Shown here: positions 2,842-55,090 of the stretch, piece after piece | Position numbering within the stretch: position 1 is the first letter of the stretch | Layout: the number at the start of each line of letters is the position of its first letter | Assembly: GCA_034439475.1 (NCBI GenBank) | Contig: JAWXAN010000042.1 | Span: 64,765 to 128,764, forward strand | Direction: 5' to 3' | DNA: 64,000 nucleotides | From: Candidatus Zixiibacteriota bacterium | GTDB lineage: Bacteria; Zixibacteria; MSB-5A5; GN15; FEB-12 | Notes under the pieces: generated by a model | The model's input: only the letters and a program-made list of their open reading frames with translations | Database searches by the model: none | What the model was told of the DNA's origin: nothing | Made by a program: the position numbers and the translations under genes

Positions 2842-2885
2842 AATTCAGGGTGCGTGGCATGCCATGGCAATCACACACTTCCACG

Positions 2886-2904
2886 ACGCATTTTTTGCGT
2901 TTTT
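2886..2904 (+). terminator. Weak candidate intrinsic terminator after the ybeY/corC operon
   Basis: acgca-ttttt-tgcgt hairpin (5 bp) followed by tttt, about 45 nt after the stop codon. Confidence 0.35.
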
Positions 2905-3113
2905 AGAAAAAAGTACTTGACAAACCCTTGCTATCAATATAGCTTGACAGTAGCAATAACTGCGTCGCTCAGCAGACTTGTAACAAATATGAGGTTGATA
3001 TTATCCTCATAGGCTACATGGAAATAGCGTAATCGTAGCTGGCGATTTCTCTTTATTTGTAAATACGTTTTGTATTTTCGTTTTCGTGCACAACATACCG
3101 AGGAGGAATTCTC

Positions 3114-3434
3114 ATGAAGGGCAAGACGGGTTCAACATTACTTGTGTTGCTTGTCGCATGCATCGCCTGCTTTGTTTCGGTACCAGTGGTGTCAAGCGAA
3201 CACCCATGGGATACGGACAAGCCACCAGGCGGTGGTCATATTATCTTTCCACCTCCGCCGGGCGCTGATACGGTTGTCATAGTTAAAGATTCAACGACTC
3301 AAATTGGCTCAGGTTCTCCACGACAGGAATCAAGCTTTGTTATGAGATCGATCTTTCGCGTCACGTATCAGATATCTCGTTTTTATGGTGGAAAGAAGCG
3401 ATTAAGCTCATCATGGGTCGGTTTTCGCGATTAA
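3114..3434 (+). CDS. Hypothetical small secreted protein
   Basis: GGAGGA 6 nt upstream of the ATG. Signal-peptide-like N-terminus MKGKTGSTLLVLLVACIACFVSVPVVSS. No recognisable family. Confidence 0.4.
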   Translation: MKGKTGSTLLVLLVACIACFVSVPVVSSEHPWDTDKPPGGGHIIFPPPPGADTVVIVKDSTTQIGSGSPRQESSFVMRSIFRVTYQISRFYGGKKRLSSSWVGFRD

Positions 3435-3511
3435 CTGATCTTTGTCGACGTAACTCACACCAGGGATAGGTGAACCCGGTAACGTTGAACAAATAAGGAC
3501 AATAGGGTAAG

Positions 3512-12012: not shown

Positions 12013-12035
12013 GCTGAGGAAGGGTACTTTTTTTA

Positions 12036-19714: not shown

Positions 19715-19804
19715 ACGCTTTTCCGTATATTCATTGACAAGGCTGAAGTGATACTTAACTACACGATGAAAAAAATAATTCATGCGATACAAAGGATAAC
19801 AAGG

Positions 19805-38590: not shown

Positions 38591-39543
38591 TGCGAAAGAC
38601 TATACATTCGCCGTTCTCCTCGTCTCGCTGGATTCTTTCGTTTGGAAGACTATTCGGTGTATTTGGTATGTTTCTTCTTTCGCTGACAGGGTGCGAAAAG
38701 CGAAAGGATATTTTTCTTAATGATGTTGACGAAATATCGCGTTATATTGTTGAGACCGAACAGGGGATAGACCTGTTTCGCGCCACAGAGCTGATCCCCA
38801 CCATTACCTACTCGGTTCCTTTTGACAGCGATCCGTATCGCGATAGTGTTACCAGCCAGACACGCAAAATCACTGTTCTTGTAGACACTGTTGCTGTCGA
38901 GTACGCCGGCTTAGGACAGGTGCTTGAGGCATGGGCAACAGTAGAAGACCGCATTAGTGTCACTACGATAATTGAGCGGGCGGATTTCGCCGACACACTC
39001 AGAGGGGTGCGGGTGCTTACGCGCTATGGCTTCTTTCTCAAGTTGGGCAATGACAGCCATGACTATCTTGGATGGCTGCTGTGGGGCTACAATCCAATTG
39101 GAGAGTTTCCCACACCGGTCAATGTCCGAGTCAGTTATCTCGACGGCGAGGATTCGGTTACCTTTTTCGGCGATTTGTCGGCCTATTCCACCAGGCACAA
39201 CGGCGCATCGGATGGAAAACCCGGTGTGACGGATAATATTTCCGTTCGGTTTCAGCAGGTACTTGAACTCAAAACAATCCCGAACGGAGGGAAACTGGTT
39301 CTGCAAACCAATACTGCAAATGGGTCTTCCCCAGTGAGGTATTATCAGCACATTTCGAGCTTCACCGGAAGTGGCGTTGAGCATAGTTTAATGTCTCGAG
39401 TGAATCGCGACATCTCACGAGACACGCTGAAAACGCCTGACGATAATCCTCGTCTATGGAATATTCTTTTTATTCAGTCATTCGAGGATGAGCGGGCTCA
39501 ATTTTCAAAATGCTGGTGTATTCCGTACAGGTCTGCTCAGTAA
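38590..39543 (+). CDS. Hypothetical lipoprotein
   Basis: Lipobox LSLTGC after a hydrophobic N-terminus. TAATG overlap with the uvrB stop. No family recognised. Confidence 0.6.
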   Translation: MRKTIHSPFSSSRWILSFGRLFGVFGMFLLSLTGCEKRKDIFLNDVDEISRYIVETEQGIDLFRATELIPTITYSVPFDSDPYRDSVTSQTRKITVLVDTVAVEYAGLGQVLEAWATVEDRISVTTIIERADFADTLRGVRVLTRYGFFLKLGNDSHDYLGWLLWGYNPIGEFPTPVNVRVSYLDGEDSVTFFGDLSAYSTRHNGASDGKPGVTDNISVRFQQVLELKTIPNGGKLVLQTNTANGSSPVRYYQHISSFTGSGVEHSLMSRVNRDISRDTLKTPDDNPRLWNILFIQSFEDERAQFSKCWCIPYRSAQ

Positions 39544-39669: not shown

Positions 39670-40482
39670 GTGAAAAGACACACACGGAAACGTATCGGAT
39701 TATTCATCGTCATGCTATTGGCAACAGTAATGACCGGATGCGGAACAGGAATCCCATCAGGACACAGGGGCGTATTTTTTAGCCGGTTCGGAGATGGAAC
39801 CGAGTTTGGGCGGATTTATAATGAGGGCTTCAACTTTCATGCGCCTTGGAATAGCATCTTTATTTACAAGACCCAGCTACAGGAGCAGAAGGAAGACCTT
39901 ACACTGCTTTCATCCGACGGGGCGACAATCGGTCTTGAAGTCTCGGTTCTTTACCGGCCGATTTCTGAGAAGCTCGATTCATTGCAATACACGATAGGGC
40001 CGAATTACTACCAAGTCGCTGTTGCTCCGAATATTCGCGCGATTGCCCGCGAAATAGGCGCCAAATACACGCCCGAAGAAATCTATGCGACAAAACGCGA
40101 ACAGATGACAACCGAAATGTTCAAACTTCTCGCCCAACAAACGGCCGCCAAATATATTGTCGTCGAAAATGTTCTGGTGCGAAATGTTTCCATCCCGGAA
40201 AAAATTTCAGAGGCCATCAATTTCAAACTCAGCGCCGCTCAGGATGCCCAGAAGATGGAGTTCACACTTCAAAAGGAGAAGCTAGAAGCGGATCGTAAAC
40301 GGATAGAGGCCCAGGGTATCGCCGACTTCCAAAAGATTGTGTCTGCGGGATTATCGCCGGCATTGCTGAAATGGAAAGGGATTGAGGCAACCGAGCGATT
40401 GGCAAGTTCCCCCAATACAAAAGTTGTGATTGTGGGCAACGACGCCGGGGGTCTGCCGATAATTCTCAGCTCAGATAAATAG
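39670..40482 (+). CDS. SPFH/band-7 (prohibitin-family) membrane protein
   Basis: GGAGGA RBS. N-terminal anchor/lipobox-like MTGCG. SPFH core (SSDGATIGLEVSVLYRP...IREIGAKYTPEEIYATKRE) and a coiled-coil with EADRKRIEAQGIADFQKIV. Confidence 0.85.
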   Translation: MKRHTRKRIGLFIVMLLATVMTGCGTGIPSGHRGVFFSRFGDGTEFGRIYNEGFNFHAPWNSIFIYKTQLQEQKEDLTLLSSDGATIGLEVSVLYRPISEKLDSLQYTIGPNYYQVAVAPNIRAIAREIGAKYTPEEIYATKREQMTTEMFKLLAQQTAAKYIVVENVLVRNVSIPEKISEAINFKLSAAQDAQKMEFTLQKEKLEADRKRIEAQGIADFQKIVSAGLSPALLKWKGIEATERLASSPNTKVVIVGNDAGGLPIILSSDK

Positions 40483-40515
40483 CCGCTCACACTTTATTTA
40501 TCCAGAACAGAAACG

Positions 40516-40549
40516 AAAAGCCGACTGTGCACTCACAGTCGGCTTTTTT
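40516..40549. terminator. Bidirectional intrinsic terminator between the convergent SPFH gene and acs
   Basis: Stem gccgactgtg / cacagtcggc with loop cact, flanked by aaaa on the left and tttttt on the right. Confidence 0.85.
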
Positions 40550-40590
40550 CTGTTACATAATCTCTGGAATGGAAGAATATCCGGTTCGCG

Positions 40591-42576
40591 TTACTCTTCC
40601 TGATAATTTTTCTTTATCCGGTTTATGACGTCCGGGTCAGCGAGGGTGGACGTGTCGCCTAAAACATTTCCTGTTGCAAGATCGCGAAGCAGACGCCGCA
40701 TGATTTTGCCTGAGCGGGTCTTGGGCAAGTCGGCTGAGAAGATTATCTTCTCGGGTCTTGCCAGAGCGCCGATTTTTCGGGTGACATGGTCTTTTAGTAA
40801 AGCCACAAGCTTGTCATCAGCCTTAACATTTTTACCGAGCGTCACGAATGCCGCCAGCGACTCCCCTTTCAATTCATGCGGGATACCCACAACTGCGGCT
40901 TCTACAACTGTGTCATGCTCCACCAAAGCCGATTCGACCTCCATAGTAGAGATTCGATGTCCGGCCGTATTTATGACATCATCGACTCGGCCTAAAATCC
41001 AAAAATAGTCATCCGAATCGAGCTTCGCGCCGTCGCCCGGGAAGTATATGTTGGGCCATTTCGACCAATATGTTTGAACAAACCGCTCGCGATCTCCCCA
41101 TAGCCCGCGAAGCATTCCTGGCCACGGTGTTGTTATGGCAAGAAAACCGCCCCCTTCAGTTATTTGGGCTCCTTTCTCATCGAGCAATGCCGCTTGAATA
41201 CCCGGAAACGGGCGAGTCGCCGAGCCGGGTTTTGTAGCAGTCAGACCGGGGAGAGGGGTAATCATGATATGGCCGGTCTCGGTTTGCCACCATGTGTCAA
41301 CGATTGGACATCTCTCATGACCGATGACCTCCCGATACCACATCCAGGCCTCGGGATTTATCGGTTCGCCGACCGAACCGAGAAGACGCAATGAGGTCAG
41401 GTCATGTTTGTCCGGCCACTCGCGACCCCATTTCATGAAAGAGCGTATTGCAGTTGGGGCCGTGTAAAAGATCGAAACGCCATAATTTTCTACTATCTGC
41501 CAAAACCTGTCCGGATTTGGCCAATCAGGCGCGCCTTCGTAGATAATCTGGGTTGCTCCGTTTGCAAGCGGGCCATAGGTAACATACGAATGTCCTGTGA
41601 CCCATCCGCAGTCGGCCGTACACCAAAAGACATCGTCGTCTTTAATGTCAAAGACAAGTTTTGTGGTGGCATAGACACCGGTCAGATAACCGCCGCAGGT
41701 ATGCATTATCCCTTTCGGTTTTCCCGTCGTGCCGGAAGTGTAAAGGATAAAGAGTGGGGCCTCACTGTCGAGATAGACCGGCTGGCAAAAGTTTTCGGCG
41801 TCGGCCATGAGATTATGGTACCAATGGTCGCGTCCTTCTTTGAAACGGAGCAAAAAATCCCCGCGCTTCACTACGACCACATGTTCAATTGTCCGGCAGT
41901 CCGCCAACGCAACATCGGCATCGTATTTCAACGGAATTATTCCACCGCGACGGTATCCACCATCGGCAGTGATGAGCACTTTTGCCTCGGCATCGTTTAT
42001 CCTGTCTTTCAAAGATTCCGGCGAGAATCCGCCAAAAACAACGGAGTGAATAGCCCCAATCCTGGCGCAGGCAAGCATCGATATCACAAGCTCGGGTATC
42101 ATCGGCAGATAAATCGCAACACGGTCGCCTTGGGTGACGCCAAGCTTTTTCAGGACATTGGCAAACTTGTTGACCTCTTTATATAACCCAAGATATGTGT
42201 ACGTCCGTTTATCGCCGAGCTCGCCTTCCCAGATAAGGGCGGCTTTATTTTTACGACCCTCTTTGATATGCCTGTCAAGACAGGATTCTGTAATGTTGAG
42301 TTTCCCACCCACAAACCATTCGGCATCGGGCGGATTCCATTTGAGAACTTTGGTCCATTTTTTGTGCCAGACAAGCTCTTCGGCCATTAATGCCCAGAAT
42401 CCTTCAGGGTCGGATTGGGCTGTCTCATAAATAGCCGGATCATTGGCGCTGGCCTGTTTGGTGAAGGCGGCTGGAGGTTTGAATAATCGGTTTTCGGTAA
42501 GGAGGATGTCGATTGTCTTATCTGATTTGGTCTCTATCTTTTTTGTCTTTTGTGAAGTTTTGACGGTCTTGGCCAT
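40591..42576 (-). CDS. acs: Acetyl-CoA synthetase
   Basis: AMP-binding motif [18 protein letters not shown], and the C-terminal [14 protein letters not shown] with the conserved Lys. Confidence 0.95.
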
Positions 42577-42818
42577 TTGAAAGTCTCCAACTCGGATTCG
42601 GTCTCGTTTTAGTCAAATATGCCGTACAATCCTGATAATTGTCAAGAAGGGAGGTGGCCTGCATCTGAGTAGACGGCAATTACTTCAAGGCCAGTGTCAG
42701 GAGCAGAGTTCGCAATCCATGTCACAAATTAGTCCGACGTGGTTACTTAGGTCATCAGCGTTCGACTCTGACATCAAAATTGAGGCTGAAACAAGCCTCA
42801 AATTGCCGTCTCTAAATT

Positions 42819-42834
42819 TGGCCTAATTATTGCT
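42819..42834 (+). promoter_or_regulatory. Sigma-54-like -24/-12 element upstream of the giant gene
   Basis: TTGGCCTAATTATTGCTT: TGGC and TTGCT with canonical spacing (8 nt between GG and TTGC). It lies about 255 nt upstream of the ATG at 43090. Confidence 0.3.
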
Positions 42835-42862
42835 TCACTATAGCTCGCGGCAACTATAGCCC

Positions 42863-42890
42863 TTGACTTATCGCAGTATTTGGCTATACT
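42863..42890 (+). promoter_or_regulatory. Sigma-70 promoter candidate for the giant gene
   Basis: TTGACT (42863-68), 16-nt spacer, TATACT (42885-90). This predicts a leader of roughly 190 nt. Confidence 0.55.
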
Positions 42891-43089
42891 TCTGGTAGAG
42901 GCTGAAAGAGGTAGGCTCCAATCGAGACCCTCATACATTTACTGCATAAGGCTTGTGAAAGCTGATAGTTGAAAAGAATTCAGTGTGAAAAGCTGTCCTT
43001 TGGGGAAGCAATTCCCTTCGGGATTCCGAGAACGCGCCGAGAACAACTGCTGCCGCTCTTGGTTTGAGGAAGTCGATTTAGGAGGAAAG

Positions 43090-46000
43090 ATGAATCGATT
43101 CGGGTTGTTGTCTATATATTTACTTGCGTGTCTTCTCTGTATTGGTGTTGCTGGCAGCGTTAATGCCGACCCGCTGGTACATCCCCCCATTTTGGAACTG
43201 CCCAATGATACGGCAGTTTTTTTGTGCAAGGGAGACTCTATCTGCTATGTGGTTGCGGCCACCGACACCGATCCCCTCGAAGAACTGACGCTGAGCTTGC
43301 TCAGCGGCCCGATTAGTTTTCCGACCAAAAAATTCGACAATCCGCTCACTACAAAAATCTGCTTCAAACCAACAAGCGGGGGGACATACCGATTCATCTG
43401 GAAAATAGTCGACAATTCCGGCCGGTCGGATATCGATACCGTCATATATACAGTCTTATTCAACGATCCTCCTTCAATGCAAGACCAGTACTTCTCGACG
43501 CTTTTTTGCAGAGGAGAGTCAGTCAGGACCCTGCAAGTTGTAGCTACTGATGCCGAAAACGATATTCTCACATATAAACTGATCTCCGGCCCGGGATCTA
43601 TAAATCCAGAGTCCGGCCTCATCAGTTATCTCCCGATAGCTACCGGCATATATACTTTTTCGGTTCTCGTGACCGATTTATGCGGAAGCGATATGGCCAA
43701 TGTGTTCGACACCGTCGAGGTCGTCAAACCAGCAAAACTTGACTGTCCGGGGGATACCTCAATTACGATCTGCGAGGGGACCAAAATCTGCCTCTATGGT
43801 TTTTCGTCGACCTTCGATGAGACGACTGTATCACATGGCACAATTGTCAATGAGACGCTCTGTTTTACGGCTGATACATCCGGCGTCTATGTTATCAAAG
43901 TTATCGGAACCGACAAATGCGGCGCGGATACCTGTGAAACCAGAGTGACGGTAAACAAAGGCGAACTTCCGAGCATCAAAGACCAATACTTTTCGGGTAG
44001 TTTCTGTTCTGATGAGATAAAAAGAACCCTTCAGGTTATTGCGACCGATGCTGACAATGATGTTCTGACCTATGAATTGCTCTCAGGTCCCGGCTCGATC
44101 AACTCATCGACCGGTTTGATTGCGTACACACCAACAGCAAGTGGCGTTTATACTTTTTTAGTTAGTGTGAGCGATACATGCGGAAGCGCTATCGCACAGG
44201 TATTCGACACGATAGTTGTCAATCCGAAAGGGAAGGTTGACTGCCCCGGCGATACCTCGCTGATGCTTTGCGAAGGAACAAAAGTTTGCCTCCCCGGTTT
44301 CGGATCCGATTTTGAGCATACGACCGTGTCGCTGGGAACGCTTGTCGATGGCACAGTCTGCTTTACGGCTGACACGAGCGGTGTCTATGTTATTAAGTTG
44401 ATAGGCAGCAATGAGTGCGGCGCTGATACCTGCGAGACACGGGTCACGGTCGGAAAGAGTACATTTACAGGATTTGTCTGTGGCGATACCGCCAACAGTA
44501 AAACTCTTAACCTTTGCTCGTCAGAAAATATTACTGTTCTCAAGGATTGTCATATAAATGGCGATCAAGTGTCGGTTATCTCATCATATGGGACATGGAA
44601 TGCTCAGACGGGAAACTGGACCTTCTACGCTGATACAAGCGGATTATATACGACCTTGATCGTTGCAACCGATTCCTGTGGCGCGAGTGATTCGCTCACA
44701 TTAAGTCAGGAAGTGGCAATAAACAAGCCACCCAGGATAGTTTTGCCAAACGACACCACCACGTTCTTATGCGAATCAGATTCGATATGCTTTGAATTCT
44801 TCGTGTTTGATTCACCAAGTGATATCAGAGGTAGAATTGTTGAATCGAACATCGGAAGTTTCAAGCCACAGGCTGCTCCTATTTTATTCCCACAGACCAA
44901 ATTTGAGGTCTGCTTTTTAGGGGACACAGCCGGTGTGTACCAAATTATCATCACCGCCACTGACTCATGCGGTGTAACCGACAAAGATACCGTCTTAGTT
45001 ACCGTCAAGAAAAACCGCGCGCCGTATATTACTATGGCCAACGATTTCACCGTCGCAAGCTGTACCGCTGAAAAAATCTGTTTTTCTGCCACCGCCGATG
45101 ATCTTGATCTCAACATCCAGACTATTACTTCAAATTTTGGTATATTCGATAACAACAGCGATCGAATCTGTTTCGATGCCGACACGAATGGCGTCTACAC
45201 GATCATCCTCACTGCTACCGACAGTTGCGAAGTGAGCGATCAAGACACAACCAAAGTCACGGTCACTGTCAACAAGCCGCCGACATTGAGTCTTGGACCT
45301 GATTTCACCAAAGACACCTGTGGACTCCTGTCCGAAATTTGCATAAACACCGGCATAGTTGACGAGAATATTAAATCTGTCACGACCACTTTTGGGCTTT
45401 ATAATCCTAACACCAAACAGGTCTGTTTTATACCCGATTCATCCGGCCTCTACGTTCTTGTAGTAAGAGTTGTCGACGATTGCAATATCGCTGCAGTAGA
45501 TACGGTCAATATAACCATCGGTCTCAACCACCCGCCGACTGTCAGCGGCTTCAATGATACGACCCTCTATATCTGTTCGCCGCAATATATCTGCCTTAAT
45601 CCTTCGATCATAGATGCTGACAATGATATTGCGTCGGTGACGATCAATCAGGGGAAATTCAAAGACGGCATGTACTGCTTTGTTCCCTACGACAGCGGGA
45701 CATACACGCTTATTTTAACTGTGATCGATTCCTGTGGCAATAAAGTTATAGATACGGCCAAGGTCAAAGTCACAACTGATCAAGGAATGAATGTGGTCGT
45801 CCCGAAAGACACCTCGATTTTCCTCTGCGAAGCGGATACCCTTTGTTTCCCGATAAAAAATATACCCGCCAATGCGACAATTAAAGTTCGCGGTACTGGT
45901 GTCTGGTACAATCCGGCAACCCAAACAGTCTGCTTCTACTCATCATGCTGTATCCAGAACAAGATTTATGTCGATGTGACGACACCATGCGGAAAGCGCA

Positions 46001-49000
46001 CATTCAGCTTCACCGTCAATCTGATGACTAACAGCAAACCGCTGGTGATTCTGCCTCAGGACGGCGCGTATCAACTTTGCGACGCCAAGGAAATCTGTCT
46101 CCCGGCCGGTATTTCTGATTTGGACAAAAATATATCTTCCATTGTGGTGGAAGGCGGAACATACGACGCATACAGCAAAACAATCTGTTTTGCTCCCGAT
46201 ACTGCCGGAGTCTATATTATCAAAGTAACGGCTACCGACTCGTGCGGCCTGGGCGACTCCGATTTTATCCGCGCGACAGTGCGAATCAACTTCCCACCAG
46301 TTATCACGTATACCCCGACAGACAGCATTTTTGAGCAATGTAATCTCACTCAGATTTGTTTGCCGGTAAATGTTTCCGATAATGACAAAAATATCCAAAA
46401 CATTACCGTCTCGAACGGCGGTGTGTATAATGCAATCAACAAAACAGTCTGTTTCAACCCACCGGGCATCGGACAGTTTTGCCTCCAGATGGTTGCCTAT
46501 GACAGTTGCGGTATTGCCGATTCAGCAGACATCTGTTTCACAGTTACCGCGGGCGACTCGGTTGAGATTGCCTGCCCTGTGATAGGCACTCCTGGTCGTT
46601 CACGTGGCTCCGTGACGACCGTTATTCCGGCATTGCTCTGCGGGCCGGACTCTGTTTGTATCCCGCTTGCCGTAACAGGTGATTATTCGTCGATTTCCGT
46701 CACCGGCGGAATATATAAAGATGGTGAGATATGCTTTTACGCTGACACAACCGGTGAATACAGCTTCACGGTTATTGCATCCGGTTCATGCAACAGTGAC
46801 ACCTGCCAGTTTACTTATCCCGTGATGATTGAGCCATCGGTTTTCGTGAGATGCCCAGGCGATACTGCGGTAAATCTTTGTTTTAGCGATACGCTTTGTT
46901 TCCCGATCGAGACATCGGTTCCGATGACCTACCTGACAGTTCTTGGCGGAGGTTACATTGATGGAGCGAACCTCTGCGTTCCGCTCACAGTGACCGGCAC
47001 AAAAATTATTACTGTCATCGCCGCAGGCGAATGCGGCTCAGACACCTGCTCGTTTACAGTCGGTACCAAACTCAATACGCCGCCAAGTGTCAAAGTTGAC
47101 GACACCACGTTTACCCTTTGTGCGCTCGATAAACTCTGCTTCCCAGTTGATGTCTTTGATGTTGATGGTAACCTGAAAGAACTCACAACGTCTATCGGCT
47201 CAGTTGGAAAAGTTGCAATCGAAAATCTTGCCGCACAGGTACTGAATGAAGACGGCCAGCCGACTGTATCAACGACACCGGAATACAAGATATGCTTTAC
47301 CCCAGAAGCTTATGGCACATACAATATTGTTGTCACTGCGATCGATTCATGCGGCAAAACAGATACCGACACTCTGACTGTTACTATCAATCAAGGGGAT
47401 GGTGTCTCGATAGCCTGTCCGAAACTGGACTCGCTCAGTTTTTGCGCTCCGAGCCAAATCTGTCTGCCGATACCAATAACAGGCGAAACGTTTGATGTCA
47501 TTTCCGGCTTTGGCGTCTGGGAAAACGACACCCTCTGTTTTGATGCCGACACAAGCGGATTCTATGCTTTTGACCTGATAGCGACATCAGGATGCAACAC
47601 CGATACTTGTTTAATCGAGATTGCAATCGCGATTTCAGATTCAGTTAACATAACCTGTCCGACCGGGGATACCACCTTGGTTGCCTGTCAGTCACCGGCC
47701 GTCTTCACCTTCCGCTATTCGATTACCGGCAATCCCACCAAGATTACCATTACCCCGCCCAATGCTATATTAGAGGGGGGACTTATCAAATTGACGGTCA
47801 ATCAGACTGGCTCGTATGTGGTCAAAGTTATTGTTGAAGGCAACTGTAATATTGACAGCTGTTTTTTCACTGTGAATGCCGCAATCAATACCCCGCCAGT
47901 GTTGATGGGACCTGAAGATACAAGTCTTGTCGCTTGCGTCCTGAGTACAATATGCCTGCCTATCAAAGCAGTCGATGCCGAAAATAATATCCGTGAAATT
48001 CGGTCGACACTCGGCGTGGTCGATGATTCAGTCATCTGCTTTACTCCGTCGGCATTCGGCGACTATCAAATTATTCTCTCGGCCGTCGATTCCTGCGGCG
48101 AGCGCGCAGTCGATACCTTCTTAATTTCCGTGAATCAGGGAGATTCAGTTGAAATCAACTGCCCGAACTCAACAATCCTTGTCTCGGTGATAGTTCCTGA
48201 TTCGATTCGTGTCCCGCTCACCATTACGCCTGAAGGAGTGGGTGTGATAATCCAGCCCGACGGTTCGGGTTACTATGACCAGAACACCAGCGAGGTTGTT
48301 GTGTATGTGACTTCATATGGAGCGCATTCCTACCAAGTGATTGCTTCAAGTAAATGCGATGTTGACTCATGTGACCTCACTATCGAAGTCGGCGAATATT
48401 TCCCGCCGACTGTGGTGTGTATCGGGACCACAGACACAGTGCTCTGTTTGACCGAACAGGATACGCTCTGTTTGCCGGTAACAGTATCTGGTAGTGCGAC
48501 CAATGTTGCCGTTTCTCCGGCAGGCGTGTACGCTGACGGTCAGGTTTGCATTCCTGTTGACACCGCCGGAACATATTTGGTTCGGATAATCGCCTCAAAC
48601 GAAACCGACGCCGATACCTGCTATTCTTCAATCACAGTTACCCGCAGCAAGCCGCCTGTTGTCGACTTGCCGCCATCGCTGTCATTTGCGCTCTGCCAGT
48701 TCGGAGAGCTGTGTGTCCCGGTTGATATAAGTCAGAGTGACTATGACCTTGCTCAAATTACAGTCAACTTTGGCCGCTACGACTCGACCCTTAAATCAGT
48801 CTGCGCGACATTTGACACAACCGGATTATATACGATAATCGTCTCAGTCATCGACTCATGCGGTAACTCTTCAACCGATACCTCGCTTGTGACTGTCACT
48901 GTCAATACCCCTCCGACTGTTGGCCTTGGCGCTGATTTCAAAGAGTTCTTGTGCGCTGTATCCAGCGAGATTTGTGTGCCAGTAAATGTCTCAGATGACA

Positions 49001-51444
49001 ACCTCGGCACTGTCACCTCCAATTTTGGGGTCTACAGCGCGGTAAAGAATACGGTTTGTTTTATAGCAGATACTTCGGGAATCTACACGATTATTGTGAC
49101 TGCCACCGACACGTGCGGCCAGTCGTCGGTTGATTCAATTAGAATAGACGTTGAAAAGAATACTCCGCCCTCGATTAGCGCTTTCAAAGATACTTTGCTA
49201 TACCTCTGCAAACCACGTGAAATATGCCTCCCGCTCAGCGTTCTCGACATCGATGGCAATCTGGCTTCGGTGACGGTAAATCGCGGCACGATTAAAAATG
49301 GCACAATCTGCTTTGTCCCGTATGACAGCGGGTCATATCAGTTCATTATTACTGCTACAGACTCATGCGGAGCGATCGCTGAGCATCGGGCAACGTTACG
49401 AATCAGAACCGATCAGGGAATTGCGCTTATCTGCCCGAAGGACACAGCGTTGTTCTTGTGCGAGCCTGATACGCTCTGCTTCCCAGTGGGCGGAATCCCT
49501 GACGATGCAACTGTCACAGTGTCAGGAACTGGTGTCTGGTGGGATCCGATAGGACAGAAAGTCTGCTTCTACTCCTCGTGCTGTATCCAAAATAGAATAC
49601 GTGTCAACGCCAAATCAGCATGCGGACAGACATTTACGTGCAGCTTTACTGTCAATCTGATGACCAATGCCAAACCGCTGGTCATTCTGCCCCAGGACAC
49701 GACTGTTGTCCAGTGTGCTCCGACACAAATTTGTTTGCCGGTCGGAATTCAGGATATTGATAAGAATCTTAAAAATATTACGGTTGTTGGCGCAGTTTAT
49801 AACGCACAATCTAAGATTGTTTGTTTCACACCCAATACTGTCGGTACATACACGATAACGGTCAAGGCGACCGACTCATGCGAATTATATGACGATGACA
49901 AAATGGTTGTTCGTGTTGAAGGAAACAAACCGCCGACAATCAGCTACACGCCGGTTGACACGGTATATAATCAGTGCCAGCCAACTCAGATTTGTCTGCC
50001 GGTTTCAATTGCCGATTCCGATAGTAATCTCGGTTCAGTCACGGTAACCGGGGGCGTGTATAACGCTACTCAGGGCACAGTCTGCTTCACGCCGAACAGC
50101 TCCGGCGAGTATTGTGTCATGGTATACGCGAACGATAAATGTGGGACGAGTGACACGCTTGAAATTTGTGTTGACATTACCACAGGCAATTTTGCGGAAA
50201 TTCTCTGCCCAGCCAATCCCTTCAAAGAAGACACGCTCTGCAAACCCGGTCTTGTCTGTGTTCCGCTATCTGTGACTGGAGTGAATTACTCCGTGACGGT
50301 CGAAAGCGGAACATGGGAGAGCAACCAGCTCTGTTTCAGCGCAGACACCAGCGGTGTATATACACTCAAGGTCATTGCCTCAGCGCAGTGCAACAGTGAT
50401 ACCTGTATTGTAAGAGTCCCCATGGTTATCGAACCTAAAATCGAGATTGTTTGTCCGGGTAACCAGAATGTCTTTCTTTGTGGTTCCGATACGCTCTGTT
50501 ATCCATTGACCGTTTTAGGATCAGTAACAAATATCACCGCCAGCGCCGGTGCGTATATCGAGGGCAATAACGTCTGTGTGCCCTTTATCGTGAGTGGCAG
50601 TCGATCCATACAAGTCATCGCCAGCGGTGAATGCGGAGCAGATACCTGCGCGTTTACGATCTCAGCTACAATTAATAGGGCTCCGATTGTGACCCTTGGC
50701 AAAGACAGTGCTTTGACGGTCTGTACTTTGAACCAGATTTGTGTGCCTTTGACTATTCAAGATTTCAATAGTAATATTCGAACGATAACGACCACACTTG
50801 GGACAATTCAGGGCAGCCAGCTTTGCTTTACCCCAACCACATTCGGGACATTCACCCTAATTGTGACTGCCACCGACTCCTGCGGAGCAAGCGGCAAAGA
50901 CACGATCAAAGTGACTATCAACAAAGGCGCCTCGGCTGTTATCACATGTCCCGATAATCTCCAGTTCGCATCGCTTTGCAAACCAGACACGATCTGTATC
51001 ATTGCGCCCATAACACCCGCAAATGCCATTGTCACAATTCTCCCAGCTGGAACGTACAATCCATCAACCGGCACGATCTGTGTGTATGCTGACAAGAGCG
51101 GCACCTTTCCGATTAAGATTATCGCATCCGCCCCATGCGGCACTGATACGTGCGACTTCAATCTTCAAGTCACACTGAACCAAAAGCCGGTTATTTCCTG
51201 TCCCGGAGCAATTGATACGCTTCTCTGCATTGCTTCGCCGACGACGCTGTGCTTCCCAGTGACTGTCACAGGAACAGGAGTCAGTGTTACGGTCAAACCG
51301 TTTGGAACATACTCGGCCGGAACGGTCTGCCTGCCGATATCAGCTGTAGGGACATTCGCAATAAAAATCATCGGAACAGGCGTCTGCGGAGTAGACACCT
51401 GCGAAACTTCGGTGACCGTCCGCAAGGATGAGGCCCTTCGCTAA
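43090..51444 (+). CDS. Giant secreted cysteine-rich modular protein (about 32 Ig-like modules); N-terminal part of a split T9SS cargo
   Basis: GGAGGA RBS (43081-86). Signal peptide MNRFGLLSIYLLACLLCIGVAGSVNA. Reiterated ~85-100-aa modules carry conserved Cys and the core ...(I/V)CF.(A/P)DTSG(V/I)YT...V.ATDSCG..D.DT..VTV. The protein has no C-terminal sorting domain of its own. Confidence 0.9.
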   Translation: MNRFGLLSIYLLACLLCIGVAGSVNADPLVHPPILELPNDTAVFLCKGDSICYVVAATDTDPLEELTLSLLSGPISFPTKKFDNPLTTKICFKPTSGGTYRFIWKIVDNSGRSDIDTVIYTVLFNDPPSMQDQYFSTLFCRGESVRTLQVVATDAENDILTYKLISGPGSINPESGLISYLPIATGIYTFSVLVTDLCGSDMANVFDTVEVVKPAKLDCPGDTSITICEGTKICLYGFSSTFDETTVSHGTIVNETLCFTADTSGVYVIKVIGTDKCGADTCETRVTVNKGELPSIKDQYFSGSFCSDEIKRTLQVIATDADNDVLTYELLSGPGSINSSTGLIAYTPTASGVYTFLVSVSDTCGSAIAQVFDTIVVNPKGKVDCPGDTSLMLCEGTKVCLPGFGSDFEHTTVSLGTLVDGTVCFTADTSGVYVIKLIGSNECGADTCETRVTVGKSTFTGFVCGDTANSKTLNLCSSENITVLKDCHINGDQVSVISSYGTWNAQTGNWTFYADTSGLYTTLIVATDSCGASDSLTLSQEVAINKPPRIVLPNDTTTFLCESDSICFEFFVFDSPSDIRGRIVESNIGSFKPQAAPILFPQTKFEVCFLGDTAGVYQIIITATDSCGVTDKDTVLVTVKKNRAPYITMANDFTVASCTAEKICFSATADDLDLNIQTITSNFGIFDNNSDRICFDADTNGVYTIILTATDSCEVSDQDTTKVTVTVNKPPTLSLGPDFTKDTCGLLSEICINTGIVDENIKSVTTTFGLYNPNTKQVCFIPDSSGLYVLVVRVVDDCNIAAVDTVNITIGLNHPPTVSGFNDTTLYICSPQYICLNPSIIDADNDIASVTINQGKFKDGMYCFVPYDSGTYTLILTVIDSCGNKVIDTAKVKVTTDQGMNVVVPKDTSIFLCEADTLCFPIKNIPANATIKVRGTGVWYNPATQTVCFYSSCCIQNKIYVDVTTPCGKRTFSFTVNLMTNSKPLVILPQDGAYQLCDAKEICLPAGISDLDKNISSIVVEGGTYDAYSKTICFAPDTAGVYIIKVTATDSCGLGDSDFIRATVRINFPPVITYTPTDSIFEQCNLTQICLPVNVSDNDKNIQNITVSNGGVYNAINKTVCFNPPGIGQFCLQMVAYDSCGIADSADICFTVTAGDSVEIACPVIGTPGRSRGSVTTVIPALLCGPDSVCIPLAVTGDYSSISVTGGIYKDGEICFYADTTGEYSFTVIASGSCNSDTCQFTYPVMIEPSVFVRCPGDTAVNLCFSDTLCFPIETSVPMTYLTVLGGGYIDGANLCVPLTVTGTKIITVIAAGECGSDTCSFTVGTKLNTPPSVKVDDTTFTLCALDKLCFPVDVFDVDGNLKELTTSIGSVGKVAIENLAAQVLNEDGQPTVSTTPEYKICFTPEAYGTYNIVVTAIDSCGKTDTDTLTVTINQGDGVSIACPKLDSLSFCAPSQICLPIPITGETFDVISGFGVWENDTLCFDADTSGFYAFDLIATSGCNTDTCLIEIAIAISDSVNITCPTGDTTLVACQSPAVFTFRYSITGNPTKITITPPNAILEGGLIKLTVNQTGSYVVKVIVEGNCNIDSCFFTVNAAINTPPVLMGPEDTSLVACVLSTICLPIKAVDAENNIREIRSTLGVVDDSVICFTPSAFGDYQIILSAVDSCGERAVDTFLISVNQGDSVEINCPNSTILVSVIVPDSIRVPLTITPEGVGVIIQPDGSGYYDQNTSEVVVYVTSYGAHSYQVIASSKCDVDSCDLTIEVGEYFPPTVVCIGTTDTVLCLTEQDTLCLPVTVSGSATNVAVSPAGVYADGQVCIPVDTAGTYLVRIIASNETDADTCYSSITVTRSKPPVVDLPPSLSFALCQFGELCVPVDISQSDYDLAQITVNFGRYDSTLKSVCATFDTTGLYTIIVSVIDSCGNSSTDTSLVTVTVNTPPTVGLGADFKEFLCAVSSEICVPVNVSDDNLGTVTSNFGVYSAVKNTVCFIADTSGIYTIIVTATDTCGQSSVDSIRIDVEKNTPPSISAFKDTLLYLCKPREICLPLSVLDIDGNLASVTVNRGTIKNGTICFVPYDSGSYQFIITATDSCGAIAEHRATLRIRTDQGIALICPKDTALFLCEPDTLCFPVGGIPDDATVTVSGTGVWWDPIGQKVCFYSSCCIQNRIRVNAKSACGQTFTCSFTVNLMTNAKPLVILPQDTTVVQCAPTQICLPVGIQDIDKNLKNITVVGAVYNAQSKIVCFTPNTVGTYTITVKATDSCELYDDDKMVVRVEGNKPPTISYTPVDTVYNQCQPTQICLPVSIADSDSNLGSVTVTGGVYNATQGTVCFTPNSSGEYCVMVYANDKCGTSDTLEICVDITTGNFAEILCPANPFKEDTLCKPGLVCVPLSVTGVNYSVTVESGTWESNQLCFSADTSGVYTLKVIASAQCNSDTCIVRVPMVIEPKIEIVCPGNQNVFLCGSDTLCYPLTVLGSVTNITASAGAYIEGNNVCVPFIVSGSRSIQVIASGECGADTCAFTISATINRAPIVTLGKDSALTVCTLNQICVPLTIQDFNSNIRTITTTLGTIQGSQLCFTPTTFGTFTLIVTATDSCGASGKDTIKVTINKGASAVITCPDNLQFASLCKPDTICIIAPITPANAIVTILPAGTYNPSTGTICVYADKSGTFPIKIIASAPCGTDTCDFNLQVTLNQKPVISCPGAIDTLLCIASPTTLCFPVTVTGTGVSVTVKPFGTYSAGTVCLPISAVGTFAIKIIGTGVCGVDTCETSVTVRKDEALR
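43468..44463 (+). repeat. Tandem duplication (2 x 498 bp, 166 codons) inside the giant gene
   Basis: PPSMQDQYFSTLFC...CGADTCETRVTVNKGE is followed directly by LPSIKDQYFSGSFC...CGADTCETRVTVGKS. The two copies are collinear throughout. Confidence 0.85.
45010..51440 (+). repeat. Super-repeat inside the giant gene: a multi-module block of about 3.63 kb followed by a second, shorter, collinear copy
   Basis: The offset is exactly 3,633 bp at three checkpoints: VNKPPT 45268 / VNTPPT 48901, CFYSSCC 45931 / 49564, and (I/L)CP 46573 / 50206. Module order is conserved to the end of the ORF. Confidence 0.85.
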
Positions 51445-51536
51445 CCGTCCCCTCTGGACTTAGTTTCGAACGCTGTCCCGAGGATTCGACTCCAATCTGC
51501 GTCGATGGAATATATGGCGATGACAGCCGTAGCGCC

Positions 51537-53216
51537 GTGACATTGAGCAAAACATGCGGCATAGGCTCGCTGGTCCTCAGCGGCTCAGATAGTGGCAAAA
51601 TATGTTTTGTTCCAGACACGACCGGCATCTATACCTTCTGTGTTCAAGCTACCGACGGCTGCAATGTGACGAAAGACACCGTGTCTGTAACGATTTTGCC
51701 TAAAGATGATTGCGATGTTTGTGTCCGCTTCTCATTTGACTACGGTGAATGTTCACCTGTGGGCGTGCGCAAGAAAATAGCTCTTAATATCGAATCAAAT
51801 CAGCCCATCGGCGGTTTTGAGCTTCTGTTGAGTTTCGATGCCTCGGTGCTCAGTTTCGTTGGAGCCTCAACAGTTGGAACCGCAATTAAGGATTGGGAGT
51901 ATTTCACATGGAATCTTAAGAGCGCAGGTTGCGGCTCATCGTGTCCCTCGGGACTTATACGGTTTGTGGGAATAGCGGATATTAATAACGGAGCCAAACA
52001 CCCACCCCTGTCGGCCTTCTCGCCCAATGGCGCGCTTGTATTCATTGAATTCCAGATTGCCAACAATCAGAACCTCGGAGATCAATTCGTTCCGGTTTCC
52101 TTTGTATGGTTTAGCTGCGCTGACAATAGTGTCTCCGACCCAACGGGAAGCACTCTGTATGTCGATAGCCGAATCTACAATCCGGGCGGCATTCTGCTGT
52201 GGGACGAATTCAATGATACCGTTTTCCCTGAAAGTAATCGACTGTTCGGTCTTGGAGCGCCAGACAACTGCTTTACCGGCGCTGGCAAGACGCCTCCGCG
52301 GCGGTGTATTGAGTTTATCAACGGCGGAGTTTGTATTATTCATCCGGATTCGATTGATGCTCGCGGCGATGTCAACCTTAATAATCTCGCGTATGAGATA
52401 GCCGATGCCGTGCTCTTCTCAAATTACTTCATCCACGGGCTCGGCGTTTTCACTCTTAGCGTCCCCGGACAGATTGCCGCGACCGATGTCAATGCTGATG
52501 GTTCCACGCTTACTGTTTCTGATTTGACATACCTCATTCGCGTTATTGTCGGCGATGCCGATCCGGTGCCCAAGACAGATCCGTATGCTGAAAACGCATC
52601 GGTAGAAACCGAAACAAGCAATGGGCAAATGACAGTTTCAACCGAAACAGTCGGGGATGTCGGCGGGGCCTATTTTGTCTACGCACTTTCAGAGAACATG
52701 GTGATAGAATCTGTGCAGTTGACCGATGCGTCCTCGCAGATGGACCTCATGTACGGAGTAGAGAACGGCCAGTTGCGAATACTTGTCTGGAATATTGGAA
52801 CAGCACGAATCGAAGCTGGCAAGCATGATCTTCTCAAAATCAACTACGCTGGCGAGGCAGATGTACGGCTGGACAAGGTAGACATAGCCGATTATCATGG
52901 ACGGCCATACGTCACAGGTAAGACCGCTGGAGCTGTTCCGGAAAGCTACACGCTCCAACAGAACTATCCGAATCCGTTCAATCCGACGACTACAATCTCA
53001 TTCAGTCTGCCCGTATCCGGCGTGTGGAAGCTGAGCATATATAATATCAGAGGCGCGCTTGTGAGACAATATACCGGAAGTGACGAAGCTGGCTCAACGA
53101 ATGTCGTCTGGGATGGTAGAACCGAACAAGGTGAAACGAGCGCATCTGGCATGTATCTCTACCGTCTGGAGGCGGCAAGCTTCTTGAAGACAATGAAAAT
53201 GATACTATTGAAGTAA
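51537..53216 (+). CDS. C-terminal part of the split giant protein: one further Cys-rich module, a cohesin-like domain, a dockerin-like pair, a beta-sandwich and the T9SS sorting domain
   Basis: This frame is already open from 51432 and encodes a complete upstream module half (LTVPSGLSFERCPEDSTPICVDGI...). There is no signal peptide at the GTG start. ICFVPDTTGIYTFCVQATDGCN matches the giant-gene module. The C-terminus is LQQNYPNPFNPTTTISFSL...GMYLYRL...MKMILLK. Confidence 0.85.
   Translation: MTLSKTCGIGSLVLSGSDSGKICFVPDTTGIYTFCVQATDGCNVTKDTVSVTILPKDDCDVCVRFSFDYGECSPVGVRKKIALNIESNQPIGGFELLLSFDASVLSFVGASTVGTAIKDWEYFTWNLKSAGCGSSCPSGLIRFVGIADINNGAKHPPLSAFSPNGALVFIEFQIANNQNLGDQFVPVSFVWFSCADNSVSDPTGSTLYVDSRIYNPGGILLWDEFNDTVFPESNRLFGLGAPDNCFTGAGKTPPRRCIEFINGGVCIIHPDSIDARGDVNLNNLAYEIADAVLFSNYFIHGLGVFTLSVPGQIAATDVNADGSTLTVSDLTYLIRVIVGDADPVPKTDPYAENASVETETSNGQMTVSTETVGDVGGAYFVYALSENMVIESVQLTDASSQMDLMYGVENGQLRILVWNIGTARIEAGKHDLLKINYAGEADVRLDKVDIADYHGRPYVTGKTAGAVPESYTLQQNYPNPFNPTTTISFSLPVSGVWKLSIYNIRGALVRQYTGSDEAGSTNVVWDGRTEQGETSASGMYLYRLEAASFLKTMKMILLK
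51711..52346 (+). other. Cohesin-like domain coding segment
   Basis: VRFSFDYGECSPVG..IALNIESNQPIGGFELLLSFDASVLSFVGAS...GALVFIEFQIANNQNLGDQFVPVSF matches the cohesin-type beta-sandwich pattern (GGF.L.L.FD...L.F). Recognised by eye only. Confidence 0.5.
52356..52565 (+). other. Dockerin-like duplicated Ca-binding segment
   Basis: Two EF-hand-like repeats: GDVNLNNLAYEIADAVLFSNYF and TDVNADGSTLTVSDLTYLIRVIVG. Confidence 0.55.
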
Positions 53217-53240
53217 GCAATCCCCTCTTATCTTTCCTCT

Positions 53241-53279
53241 AAGGCGCCCTGCATCCGCAATCGCAGGGCGCCTTTTTTT
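53241..53279. terminator. Strong intrinsic terminator after the split giant gene (convergent with rlmH)
   Basis: 12-bp stem aaggcgccctgc / gcagggcgcctt with loop atccgcaatc, followed by a T-run. Confidence 0.85.
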
Positions 53280-53286
53280 ATATCTG

Positions 53287-53760
53287 CTATTTGTGGTAGG
53301 CAGTACCGGCAAGAATGGTAAAGCCACGATAAAGTTGTTCAAGCAGAACCAGACGAACCACCTGATGAGACATGGTAAGGGGAGAGAGGGAAAGGACGGA
53401 ATTTGCCGAGGTGAGAATCTTGTCGTCAAGGCCATATGCCCCGCCGATAAGAAAATTGACTCTCCCGCCGCTCTCGATGGACAGCCGCCTAAGCATATCT
53501 GCGAAAGCCAGCGAGTCGACGGGTTTGCCTGAATCGCTCAATGCAATCGTATAACCGCCCCGTGACATTTCCTTGGAAAACAGTTCGCCTTCCTGCCGCT
53601 TCAGTTCAGGCACAGGCAAGGCAGAGGCATTCTTGACAGAAGGCAAAATTGTAATTGAAAGAGCAGCGTATTTTAGCAGAAGCGTCTTGTAATGTTCGAT
53701 ACCCTCGGTTATCCAAGGATCTTTGTCCCGGCCCACAGCAATTATTGAAACTTTTAGCAT
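53287..53760 (-). CDS. rlmH: 23S rRNA (pseudouridine1915-N3)-methyltransferase RlmH
   Basis: MLKVSIIAVGRDKD...FLIGGAYGLDDKIL...LSLSPLTMSHQVVRLVLLEQLYRGFTILAGTAYHK. Start taken at the internal ATG at 53760 rather than the track start at 53916. Confidence 0.9.
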   Translation of the reverse strand: MLKVSIIAVGRDKDPWITEGIEHYKTLLLKYAALSITILPSVKNASALPVPELKRQEGELFSKEMSRGGYTIALSDSGKPVDSLAFADMLRRLSIESGGRVNFLIGGAYGLDDKILTSANSVLSLSPLTMSHQVVRLVLLEQLYRGFTILAGTAYHK

Positions 53761-53764
53761 GACT

Positions 53765-54160
53765 TCATGCCTTAAGCAGCTTGAGAATAACACGCCTCGT
53801 TCTTGGTCCATCGAATTCGCAGAAGTAAATCCCTTGCCACTGGCCAAGGATGAGTTTTCCACTTTCAACGATGACTGTGGCCGATGAACCCACAAGCGCC
53901 GTCTTGATATGCGCATCAGAGTTTCCTTCGCTGTGTTGGTAGCCGTCCTGCTGAGGAAACTCTCGTTTCAGTTTGTGCAGAATATCCCGTTTAACGTCGG
54001 GATCGCTGTCTTCGTTGATTGTGACCGCGGAGGTCGTGTGGGGAACAAAACAAACGACTACGCCGTCGGTGAATGCAGCGTCTTCGATTGCGTTCTCTAC
54101 CTGCAAAGTGATATCAATCATTGCCTCGCGTGAGGGCGTCAATAAAGAAAATTCAATCAT
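53765..54160 (-). CDS. yjbQ: YjbQ/UPF0047-family protein (secondary thiamine-phosphate synthase-like)
   Basis: VCFVPHTTSAVTINEDSDPDVKRD...HSEGNSDAHIKTALVGSS...GKLILGQWQGIYFCEFDGPR. Confidence 0.85.
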   Translation of the reverse strand: MIEFSLLTPSREAMIDITLQVENAIEDAAFTDGVVVCFVPHTTSAVTINEDSDPDVKRDILHKLKREFPQQDGYQHSEGNSDAHIKTALVGSSATVIVESGKLILGQWQGIYFCEFDGPRTRRVILKLLKA

Positions 54161-55074
54161 GAGGCGAAAAGGGCTTCGGCAAATTGTTTGGAGTCAAAGC
54201 GCTGGATGTCATGGATCCCCTCACCCAGCCCGACGAAATCGACCGGCACGCCTAATTCCTCGGCAATGGCTATAACCACGCCCCCTTTTGCTGTCCCATC
54301 AAGTTTGGTGATGATAAGTCCGTCACACCCGACGGCCTCCGTGAATACTTTCACTTGTTGCAGAACATTCTGTCCGGCGGTTCCGTCGACAATAAGTTTT
54401 GAAAGAATAGTGGCGTCGGGGGCGGCTTTTTCAATCACCCGTTTAATCTTTTTCAGTTCATCCATCAGATTGCTTTTGGTGTGAAGCCGTCCGGCAGTGT
54501 CGATGAGTAGAATATCTGTTCCACGTGCCCTAGCCGCCGATGCCGCATCGAAGGCCACGGAGGATGGATCCGCGCGTTCTTCGGAACGAATCATTTCGAC
54601 GCCGCTCCGCTCAGCCCAAATTGCTATCTGGTCGATGGCGGCGGCTCGGAAAGTATCACAGGCTCCGATCATAACTTTTTTACCTTCGCATGAGAAGAGA
54701 GTTGCGAGTTTGCCAATAGTGGTTGTTTTGCCAACGCCGTTGACACCGGTGATGAGCCAAATGACCGGCTTACTATCGGATTTTCTGGCAAGCTGAGCGT
54801 CTTTGCGAGACAGGATTAGGGTGATTTCCTCTTTCAACAGCGCCATCAGCTCATCACCCTCGGTGATCTTTTTCTGCCTGGCGCTGATCTTTAGTTTGTC
54901 GATAAGCCTGTTGGTGGCCTGAAAACCGACATCGGCTTGGATAAGAATTTCTTCGATCTCATCGAGCAATTCATCGTCTATTTTACGGCGCAAGATGACT
55001 TCAGAAATTTTGCCAAGGATGGATTCCTTAGTTTTAGACAATGACTTTTTCAGTTTCTCAAAGGGATTAAACAT
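54157..55074 (-). CDS. ftsY: Signal-recognition-particle receptor FtsY (short form, NG domain)
   Basis: GVNGVGKTTTIGKLA, DTAGRLH and ITKLDGTAKGG GTPase motifs. Confidence 0.9.
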   Translation of the reverse strand: MFNPFEKLKKSLSKTKESILGKISEVILRRKIDDELLDEIEEILIQADVGFQATNRLIDKLKISARQKKITEGDELMALLKEEITLILSRKDAQLARKSDSKPVIWLITGVNGVGKTTTIGKLATLFSCEGKKVMIGACDTFRAAAIDQIAIWAERSGVEMIRSEERADPSSVAFDAASAARARGTDILLIDTAGRLHTKSNLMDELKKIKRVIEKAAPDATILSKLIVDGTAGQNVLQQVKVFTEAVGCDGLIITKLDGTAKGGVVIAIAEELGVPVDFVGLGEGIHDIQRFDSKQFAEALFAS

Positions 55075-55090
55075 TAGAGCCGCTTATGGT

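Follow-up and report, generated by a model that had tools for sequence, protein, structure and literature searches.

In the A-band of titin, super-repeats of 7 domains in the D-zone and 11 domains in the C-zone occur in 6 and 11 copies, respectively, and each domain contributes ~4 nm of length (PMC7427331). We describe here a bacterial feature of this kind in a 64,000-nucleotide (nt) stretch of DNA, called the window below, from Candidatus Zixiibacteriota bacterium (assembly GCA_034439475.1, contig JAWXAN010000042.1, positions 64,765 to 128,764 of the forward strand). A giant gene on the plus strand, encoding a secreted surface protein of ~3,375 amino acids (aa), contains a block of distinct immunoglobulin (Ig)-like modules that is repeated collinearly at an offset of 3,633 nt. 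As a whole, the arrangement is very probably explained by an ancient en bloc duplication, later divergence of the two copies and local gene conversion.

The closest analog of this locus is the titin super-repeat, and the feature is of a known kind, a domain-block or "super-repeat" duplication. As in titin, an ordered block of non-identical Ig-like domains has been duplicated as a unit, block length is conserved, and domains at equivalent positions are more alike than neighboring domains. In contrast to titin, there are two copies, the protein is a bacterial secreted protein rather than an intracellular ruler, its modules are PKD/cadherin-like with 4 or 6 cysteines instead of Ig/Fn3, no partner of matching periodicity is known, and a conversion hot-spot lies at one module. 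The locus is also a clean bacterial example of what is known from titin-like proteins, namely that a duplicated block may be of great age and still specific in its positions.

Giant repeat adhesins, such as Ebh, SasG, the Rib/alpha-like proteins and the RTX ice-binding protein MpIBP, typically carry arrays that are near-identical in nucleotide sequence, variable in copy number from strain to strain and hard to assemble. The protein in the window resembles them as a very long surface protein of tandem β-sandwich modules that has grown by internal duplication. Many pathogen adhesins have near-identical repeats whose copy number varies, but in this protein the blocks share 57% nt identity, their number stays fixed at two throughout a phylum-level family, and each module is distinct. 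SprB and RemA of Flavobacterium johnsoniae and the CHU_C proteins are surface adhesins of Bacteroidota that are exported through a type IX secretion system (T9SS); the C-terminal domain (CTD) of SprB is of type B. Here, too, a huge repetitive protein ends in a T9SS sorting domain, the host belongs to the FCB group and a PorV/PorQ gene is present in the window, but unlike SprB the protein has a type A CTD (TIGR04183) and no Pfam match to the SprB repeat, and Zixibacteria are uncultured. For uncultured bacteria like these, such surface proteins provide one of the few ways to approach how they attach to particles or partners. In public records the members of the family go by "hypothetical" or simply by "T9SS type A sorting domain-containing", and no account of this Zixibacteria family turned up in literature searches; the locus is a known kind of duplication in a previously undescribed family. 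Our analysis documents the conserved two-block architecture of this unnamed family of giant T9SS surface proteins, together with a localized gene-conversion hot-spot.

Collinear module blocks in one giant gene

A hidden Markov model (HMM) built from the protein itself resolves 33 consecutive modules (M1-M33) of ~80-105 aa, typically ~85 aa; it was used instead of a cysteine-motif regular expression, which caught only 23. Two module types can be told apart, P with 4 cysteines and an acidic DxDxN-like motif, and C with 6 or more cysteines, and the protein as a whole contains 171 cysteines (5% of its residues). The gene and the modules relevant to the repeat are as follows.

43090..53216, + strand: giant secreted surface protein gene, ~3,375 aa (database protein P0001 is 100% identical, 3,375 aa and in frame; match to Logan contig L001)
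45007..45264, + strand: module M8, collinear with M22, pairing not demonstrable
45265..47067, + strand: copy A core, M9-M15, types P P C P P C C (identity to copy B: 50% aa, 56.6% nt)
45772..46014, + strand: hallmark module M11 (TDQ...CFYSSCC...), the most conserved (M11-M25 60.5% aa, 65.8% nt identity)
47068..47874, + strand: extra P-C-C triplet M16-M18, in copy A only (module scores, nucleotide diagonal, ~930-aa-spaced homologs without the triplet)
47875..48639, + strand: copy A tail, M19-M21 (P C C), pairs with M30-M32
48640..48894, + strand: module M22, collinear partner of M8 (module matrix)
48895..50667, + strand: copy B core, M23-M29 (BLASTP and module matrix)
49405..49656, + strand: hallmark module M25, second CFYSSCC (motif and HMM)
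50668..51420, + strand: copy B tail, M30-M32 (module scores)
51421..51702, + strand: module M33, unpaired, spans the frameshift (module HMM match across the joined frame)

The repeat is apparent at both the nucleotide and the protein level. In an all-offset nucleotide identity scan of 42985-53216 in 600-nt windows, offset 3633 reaches 59.3% identity in its best window and is prolonged at offsets 3636 and 3600, whereas unrelated offsets peak at ~37-44% and the sole comparable signal is offset 498 near 43,400. Offset 3633 is held in exact codon register over ~1.3 kb, and three anchor pairs are separated by exactly this distance: 45268/48901 (VNKPPT/VNTPPT), 45931/49564 (CFYSSCC) and 46573/50206 (CP). 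In the protein, where the offset corresponds to 1,211 aa, BLASTP of residues 1-1880 against the remainder produced a collinear alignment of aa 672-1626 to 1883-2806, in which 961 columns show 42.5% identity and the score is 762 bits (E = 0), compared with 434 bits in the next-best register. An all-versus-all module matrix showed M9-M15 and M23-M29 to be reciprocal best hits at a constant offset of +14 modules, with scores of 176-275, and the seven core pairs share 50% aa identity versus 36% for shifted same-type pairs. The constant offset across distinct modules is that of a domain-block duplication, and the excess similarity at equivalent positions holds for the seven core pairs but fails for M8/M22.

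The initial annotation, made from the letters and reading frames of the window, had described an en bloc duplication within the giant gene at an offset of 3,633 bp, exact at three points, and all of this is borne out, as is the off-diagonal at 3,633 nt expected in a self dot-plot, which is present in the offset scan and in BLASTP. The small indels it reported between the copies are real (CPVIGTPGRSRGSVTTVIPALLC versus CPANPFKEDTLC), and its locally high nucleotide identity amounts to 84% over 63 nt. Its block of "about 12 modules" starting at ~45010 is indeed collinear, but the alignment spans 11 modules, and the first pair, M8/M22 (45007/48640), is no more alike than unrelated same-type modules (score 139 and 32% aa identity, as in unrelated P-type pairs), with M8 scoring higher against M30 (187) and M12 (170). 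We place the repeat unit at about 10 modules, possibly 11.

The second copy had also been called the shorter one, and it does lack a P-C-C triplet, although its last three modules find their match elsewhere, in M19-M21 at an offset of ~2,787 nt. M30, M31 and M32 score 191, 141 and 204 against M19, M20 and M21 (total 536), compared with 161, 117 and 113 against M16, M17 and M18 (total 391), and the nucleotide diagonal at 2787 reaches 0.44 versus 0.37 at 3531, in agreement with the former pairing. Since M30-M32 are closer to M19-M21 than to M16-M18, copy A (45,265-48,639) has an additional three-module unit, the P-C-C triplet, that is missing from copy B (48,895-51,420). The strictly collinear pairing of M16-M18 with M30-M32, found in the BLAST alignment and adopted in the initial annotation, was rejected on the strength of these higher scores and of diagonal 2787.

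Within the window the gene is interrupted, appearing as one plus-strand open reading frame (ORF) at 42985-51444 (2,819 aa) followed by another at 51537-53216 (559 aa). The probable true start is ATG 43090 (MNRFGLL...), in agreement with the start of P0001, and this 3,375-aa, 100% identical protein has no break at the position of the window stop (...RKDEAPSLTVP...); the frame-3 translation likewise carries module M33 on past the stop at 51444. The contig of P0001 in an independent assembly (Logan contig L001, SRR6448214) aligns with window positions 40,090-56,216 over 16,128 nt at 99.99% identity, and over these 16.1 kb the two differ by one single-nucleotide polymorphism (46187) and one indel (51434) and by nothing else. 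The indel lies in the following site.

51432..51436, + strand: frameshift site, GGCCC in the window versus GGCCCC in the independent assembly (L001 alignment; P0001 ...RKDEAPSLTVP...)

The stop at 51442-51444 arises from a 1-nt deletion at 51434 within this C-run, relative to the Logan contig, so that the gene continues past 51444 into the next ORF, as the initial annotation had thought plausible. The break is a homopolymer indel, either an error or a rare variant, and no gene boundary, and the two ORFs should be joined as a single gene. We rejected the alternative of a programmed frameshift at 51434, as every homolog inspected and the other assembly of the same population are in frame. At position 46187, the window has a G, encoding a cysteine that is invariant in the family alignment, and the Logan contig and P0001 have an A, encoding tyrosine.

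Age and distribution of the duplication

The seven core pairs (581 codons) were compared by Nei-Gojobori counting, with deliberately mis-paired same-type modules serving as control. Core pairs share 50.3% aa and 56.6% nt identity (control, 36% and 45%), and the proportion of nonsynonymous differences (pN) is 0.34 versus 0.48 in the control, while that of synonymous differences (pS) is 0.75 versus 0.77, meaning that synonymous sites are saturated. The nonsynonymous divergence (dN) between the cores is 0.45; as the synonymous divergence (dS) is saturated, no dN/dS ratio between the blocks is possible, and pN and pS are given instead. The longest exact word common to both blocks is 15 nt, and the high nucleotide identity and low synonymous divergence of a recent duplication are not seen in the window. 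Even the 63-nt stretch of 84% identity encodes the most conserved peptide of the family (TFSFTVNLMTNSKPLVILPQD) and carries 7 synonymous differences among 19 shared codons.

The two-block layout is widely shared among homologs. In the closest of them, P0002 (43% identity), 22 of the 26 modules from M8 to M33 match their positional counterpart, in both blocks. By pattern search, both CFYSxCC motifs are present in 29 of the 35 best homologs, 926-1,231 aa apart. The regular expression, which missed copies in several homologs, was replaced by an HMM of the hallmark module (threshold 85 bits), and with it exactly two hallmark modules were found in 69 of the 120 best homologs, one in 9 (mostly shorter proteins), none in 42 and three in 0. 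Their spacing has modes at ~930 aa and ~1,120-1,230 aa, the difference being one P-C-C triplet, and the homologs spaced at ~930 aa are without the M16-M18 triplet. A copy number that varies like that of a recent repeat array was not seen, as none of the 120 homologs has three hallmark modules, 69 have exactly two, and the independent assembly has the same structure as the window. A neighbor-joining (NJ) tree of the seven-module cores places A and B copies in mirrored subtrees for most subfamilies. The duplication is old, because homologs at 30-45% identity share the two-copy layout and because synonymous sites are saturated; on the explanation that we hold with high confidence as a whole, it is ancient and family-wide and predates the radiation of the sampled family.

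We propose that the gene encodes one giant (~3,375 aa), cysteine-rich, T9SS-sorted protein that comprises 33 tandem Ig-like (PKD/cadherin-like) modules, a cohesin-like region and a type A sorting domain. A unit of ~10-11 modules (P-P-P-C-P-P-C-C-P-C-C) would have been duplicated en bloc in the ancestor of the gene family, presumably through out-of-register recombination between similar modules. The copies have since diverged under purifying selection, their identity falling to ~50% in aa and ~57% in nt, while every module position kept its own identity across species and exactly two copies were retained at a conserved spacing, save for the gain or loss of one P-C-C triplet. In some lineages, although not recently in this genome, the surroundings of CFYSxCC are, on this explanation, episodically re-homogenized by gene conversion. 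The duplication may have lengthened a beads-on-a-string surface fiber or adhesin by ~40-55 nm while doubling its most conserved module.

A scan of species-representative genomes located the family at 34 loci, almost all of them from separate Zixibacteria metagenome-assembled genomes (MAGs), to which the family appears to be confined; named homologs are labelled Zixibacteria/GN15. One member, P0009 (locus L002), has a three-module tandem duplication of its own (1764-2359 versus 2529-3124, offset 765 nt, 69% nt identity), with the module order 8-9-10-8-9-10, and block duplications therefore recur in the family. The more distant P0062-P0120 (27-31% identity, ~3,200-3,700 aa) contain VWA domains and no hallmark CFYSxCC module, but their cohesin-like C-terminal region and sorting domain are those of the family. 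These features make them a sister family whose repeat architecture is different.

Gene conversion and competing explanations

Two copies that had gone their separate ways ever since a single old duplication would be expected to show the same A-B identity within proteins as between them. Instead, the overall values are 0.469 within versus 0.422 between proteins, and the within-protein value is the higher one in 28 of 29 proteins. The excess is found in M11 (0.69 vs 0.57) and M12 (0.57 vs 0.48), whereas the values for M13, M14 and M15 are nearly equal (0.35/0.34, 0.39/0.37 and 0.34/0.32), and in a tree of M11 and M12 together the A and B copies cluster by subfamily, not by position. For the family, then, concerted evolution is found at M11-M12. 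In locus L018, positions 8398-8866 and 11965-12433 are 82% identical over 474 nt, including an exact run of 101 nt, and pS drops to 0.10, compared with 0.78 in the flanks. L002 presents a similar tract (3275-3608 vs 6951-7283; 82% over 337 nt, 35-nt exact run, pS 0.25), and L003 shows no drop in pS despite high amino-acid identity. This is the signature of episodic gene conversion, confined to the hallmark module and set atop strong purifying selection, in some lineages. In the window, the best inter-block nucleotide match is 67% over 439 nt (45,631-46,062 vs 49,264-49,698), pS goes no lower than 0.57 across any 40 codons and no recent conversion is seen; what is present is, at most, the trace of an old conversion.

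Conversion acting on the whole block and still ongoing would leave the divergence of the copies with little to say about the age of the duplication. The within-protein excess in 28 of 29 proteins and the clear tracts in L018 and L002 are what such a process would produce, but its effect is limited to M11-M12, with M13-M15 near-equal, the flanks give mirrored A and B subtrees and pS in the window never falls below 0.57 in 40 codons, so that we consider it distinctly unlikely. Far less credible still is the recent expansion by unequal recombination in this lineage that the initial annotation had favored, with copy number perhaps still variable. Collinearity in exact codon register over ~1.3 kb and a stretch of 84% identity might suggest it; 56.6% nt identity, a saturated pS of 0.75 and a longest exact match of 15 nt do not, and the stretch in question, the most conserved peptide of the family, differs synonymously at 7 of its 19 shared codons. 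Both copies, moreover, are present in homologs at 30-45% identity, and the assembly of SRR6448214 has the same structure. The hazard for short-read assembly and the present-day length polymorphism that were anticipated along with it also lack support, since exact matches reach 15 nt at most and the independent assembly agrees over 16.1 kb; over evolutionary time, the spacing varies by one three-module unit. The repeat is neither an assembly hazard nor a sign of instability.

That the second copy is a chimeric join or a mis-assembled paralogous locus draws on nothing more specific than the general concern about repeats in metagenome assemblies, and we give it practically no credence, as the Logan assembly reproduces 16.1 kb at 99.99%, more than 60 homologs from independent assemblies have the same two-block layout and the reading frame is unbroken through both copies. 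Equally negligible is the idea that no duplication occurred and that selection for an order of types built the same module series twice. Short series of P (4 Cys) and C (6 Cys) modules, P-C-C for example, do come back along the whole protein, but paired modules are mutual best among all 33 (M11-M25 275 versus 108 for the next, M15-M29 224 versus 127), and same-type pairs at other positions share 36% aa identity versus 50% for true pairs.

Several points nevertheless weigh against an ancient duplication followed by local conversion. The 5' boundary of the repeat, at M8/M22, is not demonstrable from similarity. The trees are NJ trees of short alignments without bootstrap, and in the seven-module tree the copies of this protein and those of P0002, A and B alike, are weakly joined to one another and not to their positional counterparts, so that positional orthology in this lineage rests on module best hits rather than on the tree. 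B copies evolve more slowly and are better conserved (B-B 0.48) than A copies (A-A 0.42), and several homolog modules at A positions consequently score best against the B copy of this protein. Nei-Gojobori pS may run somewhat low in conserved segments for methodological reasons, and assembly chimeras could in principle account for the high-identity tracts of other MAGs, though several independent MAGs show them. The description of the protein as a long T9SS-anchored surface fiber or adhesin, finally, is suggested by its fold and sorting signal only.

The two-copy architecture might also be functional rather than historical, a reading that we regard as rather improbable. The CFYSxCC modules, with 6-8 cysteines, would then act as a matched pair ~11-14 Ig-like domains (~45-55 nm) apart, and the copies would be kept alike in each lineage by conversion or co-evolution. 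Were this so, the hallmark modules could be two equivalent sites for a lineage-specific ligand, or could pair within or between molecules, and the intervening block would serve to space them at a defined length, much as a titin-like ruler does, here in a bacterium and outside the cell. Of the whole locus, only this conserved two-site architecture and its conversion hot-spot might repay more work.

Module fold, secretion and neighboring genes

Across the whole protein, Pfam scores exceed their cut-offs for PKD (53.0; cut-off 23.5), Big_9 (59.2; 23.6) and PKD_4 (56.8; 27), which identifies PKD/Big modules, with totals that add up from many weak stretches. An AlphaFold2 model of M10-M12, based on 29 aligned sequences, has a mean predicted local distance difference test (pLDDT) score of 92 and is all-beta, with three β-sandwich domains in a row, and its best Foldseek matches in the PDB are the SraP adhesin, protocadherins, cadherin-23 and titin Ig tandems. 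The resemblance to cadherins and protocadherins and to the cadherin-like modules of SraP extends to the acidic D-x-D-x-N-like motifs of P-type modules, which were read from the sequence by eye only. Unlike cadherins, however, the modules have 4-6 conserved cysteines each, sequence identity to these structures is 10-17%, and Pfam Cadherin remains below its cut-off (22.1 vs 28.8 bits), so that no cadherin repeat is recognized. In a sequence search of solved structures, the modules matched only nanobodies (E ~0.02) and the C-terminal ORF only an FlgD-like CTD. At ~4 nm per Ig-like domain, the 33 modules would span ~130 nm.

Other features of the gene and of the window are listed below.

51699..52970, + strand: C-terminal region, predicted as cohesin-like, dockerin-like stretch, cohesin-like (AlphaFold2 and Foldseek)
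52965..53204, + strand: T9SS type A C-terminal sorting domain (TIGR04183, 38.9 bits, cut-off 23)
43459..43974 and 43975..44469, + strand: separate tandem duplication of a two-module unit, M2-M3/M4-M5 (offset 498 nt)
10975-12012: PorV/PorQ family outer-membrane protein (profile match 197 bits, cut-off 90)
16793-19714 and 19748-22603: two further T9SS CTD-bearing proteases, an S8 subtilase and an M6 peptidase

Within the family, conservation is highest in the C-terminal region (50-59% identity), ahead of the Ig-like modules. Its AlphaFold2 model has a mean pLDDT of 73, falling below 50 at residues 219-293, the dockerin-like stretch, and Foldseek matched it to the type II cohesin dyad 3l8q (E 7e-9) and to single cohesins (TMt 0.64-0.79; E range 7e-9 to 1e-5). 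A profile search of solved structures gave a weak cohesin match (E 0.08), and Pfam at E up to 10 gave no match, Cohesin and Dockerin included, in the 424 aa before the sorting domain. The region may resemble non-cellulosomal cohesin-dockerin modules, with two cohesin-like sandwiches around two DxNxDG-type repeats, but unlike known modules of this kind it matches neither Pfam family and its dockerin-like stretch has a pLDDT <50. The dockerin-like reading itself is tentative, as the two repeats were picked out by eye only within a low-confidence part of the model.

The sorting domain is of type A by TIGR04183 and is also matched by Pfam FlgD_ig (37.5; cut-off 27), with Por_Secre_tail (PF18962) at 25.5, just below its cut-off of 27. 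At the N-terminus, MNRFGLLSIYLLACLLCIGVAGSVNA looks by eye like a putative Sec signal peptide. None of the core T9SS genes SprA/Sov, PorK-N and PorU was found in the window; the PorV/PorQ protein and the CTD-bearing proteases point to a probably active T9SS secretome in this genome.

The M2-M3/M4-M5 unit is repeated at 59.7% nt identity in its best 600-nt window (M2-M4 63% aa, M3-M5 66% aa, ~65% nt), with saturated synonymous sites. N-terminal module order differs among homologs, and this duplication therefore looks lineage-specific. Pfam, at the thresholds applied, matched neither of two sizeable ORFs, 12036-14309 (757 aa) and 38590-39543 (317 aa). Genes with housekeeping roles make up the flanks (uvrB, acetyl-CoA synthetase, ftsY, smc and bamA), and in the window, as in both homolog loci that reach past the gene, the minus strand downstream carries a SPOUT methyltransferase gene.

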